Source of the DNA: Candidatus Omnitrophota bacterium
GTDB lineage: Bacteria; Omnitrophota; Gorgyraeia; B26-G9
Reading direction: 5' to 3'
Assembly: GCA_043805415.1 (NCBI GenBank)
Contig: JAZDHZ010000033.1
Location: forward strand, 153,600 to 217,599
DNA: 64,000 nucleotides
In this document: positions 37,602 to 40,345 of the stretch, in pieces
Layout of the letters: each line of letters opens with the position of its first letter
Position numbering within the stretch: position 1 is the stretch's first letter
Program-made: the position numbers and the translations under genes
Notes under the pieces: model-generated
What the model saw: only the letters and a program-made list of their open reading frames with translations
Database searches by the model: none
What the model was told of the DNA's origin: nothing

Positions 37602-37982
37602 ATGCAAAGTTCTAATAGTGGAAATCTAAAATTTCCTTTGGGAAGTTATAATGGTTATACGGAATTAATTAAGTGTAGGATATCTATAATCATAGACTTA
37701 ATTAGAGAAAATAAAATTAAAGAGGCGGAAAAAGGAATAGCAACTTTAGCCTTAGAACTTATTTATGAAATTGAAAAAAATTATTTAAAAGCAGAAACTG
37801 CTGATAAATATTTTACTTTGTTAGATATTGTTATTGGTGATAACTTTCCTGAAATAGAATTTTCTGAAGAAATTAAAAATATTATTATAGAGGGAATGAC
37901 ATTGCATGATTTAGGTAGTAGTTTTGGACCTAATTTAGTGGATTTAAAGGAGTCGATAAAAGCTTTTAATGATACTAAATAA
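37602..37982 (+). CDS. putative cognate immunity protein of the RHS toxin (126 aa, no known domain)
   Basis: Position immediately 3' of rhs (14-nt gap) with GGAG RBS; size typical of RHS immunity genes. Confidence 0.45.
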   Translation: MQSSNSGNLKFPLGSYNGYTELIKCRISIIIDLIRENKIKEAEKGIATLALELIYEIEKNYLKAETADKYFTLLDIVIGDNFPEIEFSEEIKNIIIEGMTLHDLGSSFGPNLVDLKESIKAFNDTK

Positions 37983-38046
37983 TAATATCATTGCCCGCTA
38001 TACTCACGGCCCATCAATTGATGAGCCATTAATTCTGGAAAAATCC
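37981..38046 (+). pseudogene. 66-bp rhs remnant (NNIIARYTHGPSIDEPLILEKS)
   Basis: Nearly identical to 39349-39414 of the orphan cassette and to 36829-36894 of main rhs. Confidence 0.7.
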
Positions 38047-38117
38047 GCAAAGACAACAGCAAAGACAACAGGGTCACAGCAAAGACAACAGGAAAGACAA
38101 CAGAGGAAAGACAACAG
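38046..38117 (+). repeat. short tandem repeat array, unit (g)caaagacaacag x5, abutting left TIR of transposase element 1
   Basis: Read directly: gcaaagacaacagcaaagacaacagggtcacagcaaagacaacaggaaagacaacagaggaaagacaacag. Confidence 0.8.
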
Positions 38118-38143
38118 GGTCAGACCTCCACATTAGAAAGTAG

Positions 38144-38172
38144 TTGACATGAGTGGAAGATAATAGTAAAAT
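38144..38172 (+). promoter_or_regulatory. element-internal promoter TTGACA-17-TAAAAT, 6 nt before transposase ATG
   Basis: Hexamers read directly; same layout in element 2. Confidence 0.5.
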
Positions 38173-38178
38173 AAAAAT

Positions 38179-39129
38179 ATGGCCCGACCATATCGATTGC
38201 AGGGAGAAGGAATATTATATCATCTAACCAGCAGGGGAGATGATCGGAAGAAAATTTTCTTAAGCGAATTTGATTTTGAGAAATTCTTAGAGTATTTAAA
38301 AATAGCAAAAGAAAAGTTCAAATTTTATTTATACGCCTATTGCCTGATGGGCAACCATTATCATCTGCTAATAGAAACAACCCAGCCAAACCTATCCAGA
38401 ATAATGCAAAATATAAACAGCTCATATACACTCTACTATAATAAAAAAAGAAGTAAATGCGGGCATGTGTTTCAAGGTAGATACAAATCAATAATAGTCG
38501 AAGCTGATGAGTATTTCAAAGAACTGAGCCGATATATACATTTAAATCCGGTAAAGGCGCGGATAGTAAATAGCCCTGAGGAATATAAATGGTCAAGCTA
38601 CCGAACATATATTAATAAGTCTGATAATAATGAGATAATTGATATTGCCGAGGCAAAAAGACTTTTAGGCATGGAAATGAGAGAATATATAAGTTTTGTA
38701 AAAGCCGGTATGCTGGAAAAAGAGAATTTAATGGAAAAAGTATATGCGGGATTTCTGCTTGGAGGCAAGGAATTTATCAAAGAGCAGCTGGAGGAAATAG
38801 CAAATCAAACAAGTGAAAAAGATTTTGCGTATAAGCGGGAAGTTTTTTCGCAAACAGATCCGAGGGATATAATAAACATAGTTGCCAAACATTTTAAGCA
38901 AACGCCGGAAGAAGTAAAGACAAGTAATAAACGTCCGATGACAGCGAAAAAGATGGCAATATATTTAATACGGAAGAAAACTAATCTGACGAATAATCAG
39001 ATTGGGGAAATGTTTAATATGAAATTTTCAGCAATAAGCAAAGCTGTGCTAGCTTTTACCAGTCAAATGGATAAAGATAAGAGGCTAAGGGAATTAGTGA
39101 AAATGATAACTTCTAAAGTGGAGGTCTGA
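38179..39129 (+). CDS. IS200/IS605-family Y1 (HUH) transposase fused to a C-terminal DnaA domain-IV-like HTH
   Basis: MARPYRLQGEG..YHLTSRG...YCLMGNHYHLLIET (HuH), catalytic Tyr region; C-terminal MTAKKMAIYLIRKKTNLTNNQIGEMF resembles DnaA C-terminal HTH. Confidence 0.75.
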   Translation: MARPYRLQGEGILYHLTSRGDDRKKIFLSEFDFEKFLEYLKIAKEKFKFYLYAYCLMGNHYHLLIETTQPNLSRIMQNINSSYTLYYNKKRSKCGHVFQGRYKSIIVEADEYFKELSRYIHLNPVKARIVNSPEEYKWSSYRTYINKSDNNEIIDIAEAKRLLGMEMREYISFVKAGMLEKENLMEKVYAGFLLGGKEFIKEQLEEIANQTSEKDFAYKREVFSQTDPRDIINIVAKHFKQTPEEVKTSNKRPMTAKKMAIYLIRKKTNLTNNQIGEMFNMKFSAISKAVLAFTSQMDKDKRLRELVKMITSKVEV

Positions 39130-39130
39130 C

Positions 39131-39191
39131 CCCGTTGGTGTGTAGACCCCGTTGGTGTGTACCGTTGGTGTGTAGACCCCGTTGGTGTGTA
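39131..39191 (+). repeat. short tandem repeat array, unit ccccgttggtgtgta(ga) x4, abutting right TIR of element 1
   Basis: Read directly. Confidence 0.8.
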
Positions 39192-40113
39192 CACCTATGA
39201 CAGTGAAGACCAGTTGATAAATATCAGCAGTCCGGGAACGAGTGTGAGCTATCGTTACGATGCTTTAGGCCGCAGAATTGAGAAGGATGTTGATGGACAG
39301 ATAACAAAGTATGTCTATGACGGAGAAGATATTATTGCCGAATATGACGCTAATAACAATATCATTGCCCGCTATACCCACGGCCCATCAATTGATGAGC
39401 CATTAATTCTTGAAAAATCCGGACAGACGTACTATTATCAGACTGATGGTTTAGGTTCAGTCACCAATATTACAGATGCCAATAACCAGACCGTTAAGAC
39501 GTATCAGTACGACAGCTTCGGTAATATAATATCAACAACCGGGTCTTTGACTCAGCCGTTTACATACACCGGTAGAGAATACGACAGCGAGAGCGGATTG
39601 TATTATTATCGCGCCAGGTATTATGATCCAGCAATCGGAAGGTTCCTGCAGGAAGATCCGGTTTGGGATACGAATCTTTATTTGTATGTTGATAATAATG
39701 CGGTTAACTATATAGATCCAGAGGGGTTGTTGAAAATGGTTTTTAATGGAGGTGGGCACATTCCTGTCTCAGCTGGTACAGCGTTGGGGATGACTGTTCA
39801 ATCAGAATGGGATAAAACAGGCTTGCATGCTGCCGGGACTTCAATCGATATGGTAATGGGTGATATAGTAGATGTAGGTTTTTCTTTAGGAATTGGGGAT
39901 ATTAGCAATACGTGTGGGGAAAAGGCTGGAGGAACTCTCAGTCTCAATCATCCTTTGTTAGGAAAATATGGAGGGATTCAACTTACTTTTAGAAATGATT
40001 TTAACTGGAGCGATCCTGGTACTTGGATTCCAGATGGTTTACAGGTAGGCATTGGGCTTGGAATTTCGTTGCCAAGTACTTATACTGAGCAGATTGGTTT
40101 TAGAGATTGGTAG
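39157..40113 (+). CDS. orphan rhs C-terminal cassette (no N-terminal body or credible start); alternative Gly-rich toxin tip after the DPxGL junction
   Basis: 39193-39729 is ~90% identical to 36676-37212 of main rhs; ends ...NAVNYIDPEGL then diverges entirely. Confidence 0.7.
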   Translation: MYRWCVDPVGVYTYDSEDQLINISSPGTSVSYRYDALGRRIEKDVDGQITKYVYDGEDIIAEYDANNNIIARYTHGPSIDEPLILEKSGQTYYYQTDGLGSVTNITDANNQTVKTYQYDSFGNIISTTGSLTQPFTYTGREYDSESGLYYYRARYYDPAIGRFLQEDPVWDTNLYLYVDNNAVNYIDPEGLLKMVFNGGGHIPVSAGTALGMTVQSEWDKTGLHAAGTSIDMVMGDIVDVGFSLGIGDISNTCGEKAGGTLSLNHPLLGKYGGIQLTFRNDFNWSDPGTWIPDGLQVGIGLGISLPSTYTEQIGFRDW

Positions 40114-40138
40114 TTAGAAAACCAGGGGAGGAAAGATT

Positions 40139-40345
40139 GTGAAGTATATATTTGCGAGTTTGTTTTTTCTTATGGGCATAGGTTCTCTTCTTTTTGGTGA
40201 AAAAGTGTATGGCGAAGGGGGAGTCATAAGAACTTTTACATTAAGTAGATTTAAAAAATTTAGTGCTATTTGGACTGTTGTTGTAAAAATCGCAGTAGGA
40301 ATAGGATTTATTATTATGGCTGTCATAGTTCTTTTTAAATTATAA
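40139..40345 (+). CDS. small two-TM membrane protein, candidate immunity partner of the orphan toxin tip
   Basis: GTG start with GGGGAGGAAAG RBS 25 nt after orphan cassette stop; two hydrophobic helices. Confidence 0.4.
   Translation: MKYIFASLFFLMGIGSLLFGEKVYGEGGVIRTFTLSRFKKFSAIWTVVVKIAVGIGFIIMAVIVLFKL

Follow-up and report, generated by a model that had tools for sequence, protein, structure and literature searches.

In this study, we examined a 64,000-nucleotide (nt) stretch of DNA (the window) from a metagenome-assembled genome (MAG) of a Candidatus Omnitrophota bacterium (contig JAZDHZ010000033.1) and conclude, with a probability of about three in four, that it contains an orphan rhs C-terminal (rhs-CT) toxin/immunity module that has a history of tip displacement, is dormant until recombination, and encodes a membrane-directed tip. 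The module lies 3' of a full-length rhs gene and on the same strand; it retains the rhs core up to the DPxGL motif, continues into a tip of its own, and is followed by a putative immunity open reading frame (ORF). It lacks an N-terminal body and any export or translation-initiation signals, and its tip differs from that of the main gene and belongs to a family that full-length Rhs proteins also carry. A first-pass annotation had proposed such a cassette from the partial core homology to the upstream rhs gene, the new tip after DPxGL, and a downstream ORF with two transmembrane (TM) segments and a ribosome-binding site (RBS), and our analysis supports that proposal. The cassette is an orphan toxin/immunity unit of a well-known, ordinary kind; what is new about it is modest and concerns the phylum of the host and the tip family, which is unnamed and structurally distinctive.

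Pairwise alignment confirmed the homology between the orphan and main cores over an in-frame block of 543 nt, in which positions 39190-39729 pair with 36673-37212 up to the DPxGL codons. Identity across the block is 84% at the nt level (458/543) and 90% at the amino acid (aa) level (163/181); the figure of ~90% given in the first-pass annotation therefore holds for the protein and, in the nt comparison, for the first 300 nt (repeat family D1, 36673-36972 versus 39190-39489, 90% nt identity), but not for the block as a whole. The longest identical runs are 38, 37, and 29 nt. Purifying selection on the orphan core relative to the main core is strong; since dN/dS is 0.07 at a dS of 0.87, the orphan core derives from a diverged, once-functional rhs allele and not from a decaying local copy. 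The sequence 5' of 39190 is a tandem repeat that bears no resemblance to the main gene. The TIGR03696 Rhs-associated core (E-value of 5.9e-24, residues 118-191) was detected in the orphan ORF, as were RHS repeats, and the core of the orphan ends in DPEGL at 39715-39729.

The orphan frame is open over 957 nt, with no frameshift or stop codon. As had been observed, it has no N-terminal body; nor does it have an ATG codon or a Shine-Dalgarno (SD)-like sequence. The further statement that it has no start codon needs to be qualified, since in-frame GTG codons are present at 39157 and 39187, inside the tandem repeat, and NCBI calls a 308-aa coding sequence (MFH1062627.1, [quoted passage not shown]) from the GTG at 39187; the orphan ORF matches this entry over the tip. 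Because there is no Rhs shell, leader, or RBS, the orphan tip would not be exported and would be silent in that respect as it stands.

The tip comprises 127 aa, of which 18% are Gly, compared with 7.4% in the Rhs body, and it is unrelated to the tip of the main gene, in agreement with its initial description as a different, Gly-rich tip. An exhaustive search of 1.84 billion representatives with this tip returned 52 hits, 12 of them at E-values of ≤1e-10, and the resulting family consists of approximately 50 clusters whose members are 30 to 45% identical. Most of the 55 matches that were inspected (the 52 representatives and cluster members) are C-terminal and run straight on from a DPxGL-type motif; the exceptions are mainly fragments, together with a few other N termini. 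Family tips are present on full-length Rhs proteins of 1426 to 1509 aa (e.g., P0036, 1493 aa, and P0037, 1426 aa), and two members have been labelled "filamentous hemagglutinin" by JGI. Conserved in the family alignment are G8, H10, D48, G50, G54, S59, D102, the G107-x-G109-x-G111 strand, and P115; the window tip keeps all of these residues, and its coding capacity is therefore intact.

Other searches with the tip were negative. Pfam and NCBIfam gave nothing for the tip itself, a comparison of 34 family members with Pfam at E-values of ≤1 gave nothing beyond noise, and a profile of the same members detected no PDB chain at E-values of ≤10. A word-indexed protein search with the tip produced no match, not even to the window's own protein. 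No match was obtained in genome contigs with a degenerate DNA pattern for the NPxRYIDG...GLG motif, no relative was recovered by single-protein scans of genome and metagenome contigs with the tip, and exact-sequence look-ups of five window proteins retrieved no contig.

Arrays of orphan tips from this family were observed in an unrelated metagenomic organism (L001 to L006; e.g., L002, 4075-8188), where at least three orphan tips, including the family member P0004, form an array behind a 1639-aa Rhs protein that contains a Peptidase_C39 domain. Each of them is Gly-rich and has a small TM protein as its partner (74, 136, and 106 aa); the make-up of the array varies between samples, which include 382-aa and 355-aa orphans.

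An AlphaFold2 model of the window tip, built from a 19-sequence alignment, is all-beta (pLDDT of 85.4, pTM of 0.70), and a model of a second family member was obtained with a pLDDT of 79.7; an all-beta barrel is thus the predicted fold of the tip. The Vap proteins of Rhodococcus equi (VapD, VapB, and VapG; TM-scores of ~0.45 to 0.61) are the only meaningful PDB neighbours of either model. VapD matches the window tip with TM-scores of 0.56/0.61, a probability of 0.99, and an E-value of 3.5e-3, and it matches the second member with a TMt of 0.56, a probability of 0.87, and an E-value of 0.26. The barrel of the Vap proteins has eight strands, the last of them with a Gly-x-Gly pattern, and a Gly-rich "bald" surface to which detergent or lipid binds (PMC4118825); VapA permeabilises liposomes, and both VapA and VapN act on membranes and neutralise the pH of vacuoles (PMC10100859). 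Like them, the modelled tip would be an all-beta barrel of ~110 to 125 residues with Gly-rich strands, one short helix, and a Gly-x-Gly-x-Gly last strand. However, there is no sequence match, the Foldseek E-values are weak, and the helix of the tip precedes the last strand, whereas that of the Vap proteins lies between strands 4 and 5; moreover, Vap proteins are stand-alone secreted proteins with no immunity partner, not Rhs tips. The Vap family model of Pfam (R_equi_Vir) matched neither the tip nor any of the 34 family members at E-values of ≤1. We therefore treat the modelled resemblance, which is weak, as a lead and not as demonstrated homology. An integral outer-membrane-type barrel was considered and rejected, because the outward-facing strand positions are polar or Gly: hydrophobic positions alternate with Gly, Ser, Thr, Asn, or Gln in the family alignment, as in a soluble barrel with a hydrophobic core.

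The 68-aa ORF starts 25 nt after the stop codon of the tip, with a GGGGAGG sequence 7 nt 5' of its GTG codon, and its hydrophobic segments span residues 1 to 21 and 40 to 68; the good RBS and the two TM segments described in the first-pass annotation were thus both confirmed. It is 100% identical to the NCBI entry "hypothetical protein V1747_07075", which is encoded on the same 234,467-bp contig as MFH1062627.1, and Pfam, NCBIfam, and PDB sequence searches with it returned no match. A small membrane or membrane-anchored protein is encoded directly 3' of the tip in seven contexts from other organisms (L002/L003, L007, L008, L009, L010, and L011). Behind the closest relative of the window tip (P0002, 46% identity) lies a 72-aa hydrophobic ORF, to which the 68-aa ORF shows no similarity; the ORF that follows P0007 has a C-terminal TM segment, and that following P0004 (130 to 136 aa) has two long hydrophobic stretches spanning multiple TM helices, while P0065, P0019, and P0029 have mutually similar partners of 134 to 142 aa with one N-terminal TM segment. 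Pfam searches with the partner proteins of the relatives gave only sub-threshold matches. We infer that the 68-aa protein is the immunity protein of the orphan tip and that the tip is a membrane-directed toxin. The earlier suggestion that the tip is perhaps membrane-active is compatible with the membrane-protein partner found in every context examined and with the predicted Vap-like, Gly-rich barrel.

The 68-aa protein could be made independently of the tip, either by read-through from the promoter of the mobile element that precedes the orphan (TIRYT element 1, described below) or from an internal promoter. A promoter-like TTGACA-17-TAAAAT sequence is located at 38144-38172, 5' of the gene of this element, and the scan revealed no terminator-like site between it and the orphan. 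A weak promoter-like site at 40058-40086, before the 68-aa ORF, is a hint only, since the promoter scan, with 20 sites compared with a background of 13.2 ± 3.7, was not above background level.

Among the closest known parallels are the orphan rhs-CT/rhsI modules of Enterobacteriaceae, such as STM0292 of Salmonella Typhimurium LT2 (Koskiniemi et al. 2014, PMC3967940), for which recombination of an orphan rhs has been shown experimentally, over 522 bp at 95% identity. The window module and STM0292 are both body-less fragments 3' of a full-length rhs/immunity pair, with ~520 to 540 bp of core homology that ends at DPxGL, a different tip, a small downstream immunity ORF of their own, and no translation-initiation or export signals, and the activation route that we propose for the window, recombination with the main gene, is that of LT2. 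Unlike LT2, the window host belongs to the Omnitrophota, with no type VI secretion system (T6SS) genes seen in the 64 kb and with a Sec-type leader and PKD/FG-GAP domains instead of PAAR; the core identity is 84% and not 95%, the 5' boundary of the orphan is a TIRYT tandem repeat, and no recombinant has been observed. It can be proposed that recombination of the RecA type within the 540 nt of homology would fuse the orphan tip to the main gene, with the loss of 2517 bp. The Rhs aspartyl autoprotease would then cut at DPEG|L and free a compact, Gly-rich beta-barrel tip, which may act on the cytoplasmic membrane of the target cell, probably by permeabilising or depolarising it, and which the membrane-embedded partner would block.

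A possible model for the working of such a cassette, by analogy, is Tse5/Tsi5 of Pseudomonas aeruginosa. Tse5 is an Rhs pore-former whose immunity protein, Tsi5, has two predicted TM segments, and the pair exemplifies how membrane immunity proteins mark membrane-targeting toxins (PMC9637101); a structure of Tse5 has been published (PMC10684867). The window cassette resembles it in having an Rhs C-terminal toxin with no predicted enzymatic domain, and the 68-aa ORF, like the small inner-membrane protein Tsi5, has two TM segments. However, the tip has no sequence similarity to Tse5-CT (profile versus PDB, E-values of ≤10), and Tse5-CT is predicted to be helical and membrane spanning, whereas the window tip is predicted to be all-beta with polar or Gly residues facing outward. 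The ionophoric CdiA-CT toxins (PMC11630599) are likewise polymorphic tips with small integral membrane CdiI immunity proteins of very varied sequence; this likeness is one of description and not of sequence comparison, and in the window the delivery scaffold is Rhs.

A displacement history is suggested by a third rhs core fragment, a remnant located between the putative immunity gene of the main tip and the orphan. As the first-pass annotation had stated, its closer match is the orphan and not the main gene: it shares 63/66 positions with the former and 56/66 with the latter over 37981-38046, and 72/77 and 64/77, respectively, over 37978-38054 (repeat D3). All three differences from the orphan in the 66-nt segment are synonymous; the remnant therefore comes from a third allele that was under selection and not from a decayed copy of the orphan. 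We also considered whether the remnant and the orphan are halves of one orphan that was split by the insertion of the TIRYT element, and rejected this possibility: the orphan holds its own equivalent of the remnant (39355-39420) plus 162 nt farther upstream, and the two are therefore separate copies. To account for three tips or remnants, a minimum of two displacement events is needed, and not of three as had been claimed. We propose that successive incoming tip/immunity modules pushed older ones downstream in at least two such events, that the right-hand join of the latest module may have formed at the AATAA sequence (37978-37982) common to the stop codon of the 126-aa ORF and the resident core, and that a later TIRYT-associated rearrangement or deletion would have taken out the rest of the middle module and trimmed the 5' side of the orphan.

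The region between the remnant and the orphan (38047-39195) consists of TIRYT element 1 and its flanking arrays, a mobile element that the first-pass annotation had not recognised. Its gene product contains Y1_Tnp (PF01797, E-value of 1.7e-14) and Bac_DnaA_C (PF08299, E-value of 7.3e-11) domains and scores 83.3 bits against NF047646 (REP-associated tyrosine transposase; cut-off of 80). The end of the remnant coincides exactly with the start of the left array, and the start of orphan homology coincides with the end of the right array; the tandem repeats that flank the element are the actual breakpoints of the remnant and the orphan. Because these repeats bound the remnant (at 38046) and the orphan (at ~39190), part of the present arrangement reflects rearrangement by a mobile element, not tip displacement. 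A second element, TIRYT element 2 (41633-42646 without its array), shares 76% nt identity with element 1 in the initial 300 nt, and a solitary 3' end at 40516-40604, just after the orphan cassette, indicates that a third, now deleted, copy was once present in the island.

TIRYT elements, subclass 2.1.2 of TnpA(REP), are characterised by a Bac_DnaA_C domain, terminal inverted repeats (TIRs) with the consensus GGGG[AT][CG]A[CG], and no REP hairpins (PMC6006769). The window elements resemble them in their combination of Y1_Tnp with a DnaA-C helix-turn-helix, in the length of the protein (~315 aa), and in TIRs whose start is close to the published consensus; the 27-nt and 25-nt TIRs contain AGGGTCAG and begin with (A)GGGTCAG. 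Among 30 metagenomic TIRYT relatives inspected, most have GGGGTCAG-type TIRs at both ends of the gene. Unlike the published elements, those in the window have TIR tips that are reiterated as 13- to 24-nt tandem units on the outer flanks, and their arrays abut duplicated gene fragments; we found no description of such flanking arrays in PMC6006769. The motif GGTCTGACCC has nine matches in the 64-kb window, all within the island, compared with 0.54 expected. Short outer-flank arrays with 12- to 30-nt units occur at 38047-38117, 39128-39195, 40569-40604, 41595-41635, and 42634-42681, and the right-hand arrays of the window elements reiterate the TIR tip (…GACCCC plus 9 to 17 nt). Arrays of two to three units with TGACCCC were also seen at the right end in 5/19 metagenomic relatives checked, and one locus, L028, has a similar array on the left flank (loci L021, L025, L028, L040, L042, and L091).

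Table 1. Features of the rhs/TIRYT island and its borders (positions are those of the window)
Feature	Position	Strand	Remarks
Left copy of 102-nt direct repeat	30488..30589	+	Last 81 nt of 944-aa AddB-like gene and ~21 nt downstream
Main full-length rhs, 2200 aa	30985..37587	+	ORF list, domain search
Main rhs core segment homologous to orphan	36673..37212	+	Repeat search, alignment; possible recombination substrate for a tip swap
126-aa ORF, directly 3' of main rhs	37602..37982	+	Candidate immunity gene of main tip
Third rhs core remnant (NNIIARYTHGPSIDEPLILEKS)	37978..38046	+	Starts at AATAA microhomology with stop of 126-aa ORF; cut off by 12-nt tandem array
Left tandem array, ~12-nt units (GCAAAGACAACA)	38047..38117	+	Left flank of TIRYT element 1
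TIRYT-type element 1	38112..39137	+	27-nt TIRs 38112-38138 and 39111-39137 (93%) around 316-aa gene 38179-39129
Right tandem array, 13/17/30-nt units (GACCCCGTTGGTGTGTA)	39128..39195	+	Includes right TIR tip; 5' boundary of orphan; supplies GTG 39157 and 39187
Orphan rhs core fragment, 180 codons	39190..39729	+	Rhs_assc_core, DPEGL end; repeat search, alignment, NCBIfam
Orphan tip, 127 aa and stop	39730..40113	+	Tip 39730-40110, stop 40111-40113; unnamed Rhs-CT family
68-aa ORF	40139..40345	+	GTG start, GGGGAGG RBS; candidate immunity protein of orphan tip
TIRYT 3'-end remnant	40516..40604	+	Last ~50 nt of gene and right TIR (91% to 39069-39142), then 15-nt tandem array
282-aa ORF	40708..41556	+	N-terminal hydrophobic anchor; between TIRYT remnant and TIRYT element 2; no Pfam/NCBIfam match
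TIRYT-type element 2	41633..42681	+	Perfect 25-nt TIRs 41633-41657 and 42622-42646; 315-aa gene 41695-42642; two 24-nt tandem units 42634-42681
Right copy of 102-nt direct repeat	42680..42781	+	Orphaned AddB-like 3' end; begins exactly at end of TIRYT element 2 tandem array

How the tip acts is the step at which the interpretation meets its main rival, namely, that the tip is an enzyme of the periplasm or the membrane surface whose substrate might, for instance, be lipid linked or part of the envelope, with His10, Asp48, Ser59, and Asp102 as its active site and with anchored partners that position an inhibitor. These polar residues are conserved across a family whose members are only 30 to 45% identical, and the outward faces of the strands are polar or Gly; the partners at L007, L008, and L009 consist of a single TM anchor and a soluble domain of ~100 aa, an architecture typical of inhibitor-type immunity proteins. 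However, no enzyme family was matched in Pfam, NCBIfam, or PDB, the partners in the window and at L011 are almost all TM helix and would offer little surface for inhibiting a soluble enzyme, and the Vap proteins, which have the nearest fold, have no known enzymatic activity (PMC10100859, PMC4118825). An envelope-directed enzyme therefore seems unlikely to us. The more ambitious extension of the membrane-directed interpretation, in which the family represents a novel class of polymorphic toxin whose soluble, Gly-rich, Vap-like barrel of eight strands would permeabilise or depolarise the bacterial cytoplasmic membrane and would be counteracted by small membrane proteins of great diversity, is also decidedly doubtful.

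A different origin for the cassette can be envisaged from its borders: it may have been brought in or duplicated by TIRYT-associated rearrangement, and not displaced from the main gene in situ, in which case the orphan would be a by-product of the mobile element. Both the orphan (39190) and the duplicated addB 3' end (42680) begin exactly where a TIRYT right-end array stops, the third TIRYT remnant closes the cassette, GGTCTGACCC is confined to the island, and the dS of 0.87 to the main core shows a foreign origin of the orphan core. However, such an origin is also expected under the displacement model, orphan arrays of the same family elsewhere (L001 to L006) have no identified adjacent TIRYT gene, and the left join of the remnant, at an immunity stop codon, fits standard displacement. 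We know of no Y1/TIRYT element that transduces flanking DNA, and we regard this scenario as quite improbable. The view that nothing in the cassette is functional, the orphan being a pseudogene fragment in decay and the 68-aa ORF a chance one, would accord with the absence of an RBS or ATG codon on the orphan, with the 68-aa ORF having no homolog, and with the evidence coming from a single genome. We consider it very unlikely indeed, because the 957-nt frame is intact, the dN/dS of the core is 0.07, and all of the family-conserved residues of the tip are kept, while the 68-aa ORF has a strong RBS at the right spacing, two clean TM segments, and a start 25 nt past the tip stop, in a layout that recurs in seven other contexts.

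Several points nonetheless count against a dormant, displaced module with a membrane-directed tip. The 68-aa ORF has no homolog other than itself, and the partners of related tips are unrelated in sequence; the expectation that this ORF would be conserved beside the tip in relatives was thus not upheld, only the position and the class of small membrane protein recur, and for these reasons its role is argued from position, RBS, and class. The conserved His, Asp, and Ser residues could equally mark an enzyme. An 84% identical core with identical runs of ≤38 nt is a poorer recombination substrate than that in LT2. The recombinants suggested by the first-pass annotation, with the orphan tip on a full-length gene, did not materialise: the collections searched yielded neither a recombinant nor a strain variant, and the window tip allele was not found on a full-length rhs gene, although family members do occur on such genes. 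Finally, a single genome does not suffice to prove in what order the events in the island took place.

The island of 12.2 kb sits between an addB-like gene and secDF, among housekeeping genes that include, on the 5' side, two AcrB-type pumps, an AddA-like helicase-nuclease, and the 944-aa AddB-like PD-(D/E)XK protein and, on the 3' side, SecDF and Rnf subunits. The two copies of the 102-nt repeat (repeat D4), which are 98% identical, bracket the whole island, and it looks as if the island was inserted at the 3' end of the AddB-like gene with duplication of that end. The main Rhs protein has an N-terminal hydrophobic leader followed by PKD/Ig, CarboxypepD_reg, and FG-GAP domains and RHS repeats; its core terminates with DPDGL at 37198-37212, and its own tip is encoded by 37213-37584. 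No T6SS genes were seen among the scanned proteins of the window, and neither the main tip nor the 126-aa or 282-aa ORF had a match in Pfam, NCBIfam, or PDB sequence searches; the 282-aa ORF might be a stranded immunity-type gene or cargo of the element. Directly after DPDGL of the main gene, a 48-nt tandem duplication (37211-37303; 1.9 copies, 88 to 89% identical) doubles a 16-residue stretch (LQSLNVFFIDIAGLGR / LQALNVLFVDIAGLGP) where the main tip begins. An Rfam scan of 30000-43500 identified no RNA family. Elsewhere in the window, at 10398-10687, there are two adjacent tRNA-like starts (…TAGCTCAGTTGGTTAGAGC), each preceded by a repeated upstream segment of ~69 nt (88% identical, 190 nt apart); these segments resemble tRNA promoter regions that have been duplicated.

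In bacterial competition, orphan Rhs tips are known to serve as a reservoir for the switching of toxins, and the cells of the Omnitrophota, an uncultured phylum, are very small and possibly host dependent. The presence of an orphan behind an Rhs protein of the Sec-type, PKD/FG-GAP kind extends this picture of a tip reservoir to the Omnitrophota, and the junctions of the island show a TIRYT Y1-transposase element reshaping a toxin locus. Since it combines a confident all-beta model, the absence of a sequence relative in Pfam or PDB, and a consistent pairing with membrane proteins, the tip family is a concrete candidate for a non-helical membrane-targeting toxin. The mode of action of the Vap proteins is still debated; if the tips did prove to be Vap-like barrels that permeabilise or depolarise the membrane, Rhs tips and the Vap virulence proteins of R. 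equi would share a membrane-active fold, and the toxin/immunity pairs would provide a genetically tractable way into how that fold attacks membranes.

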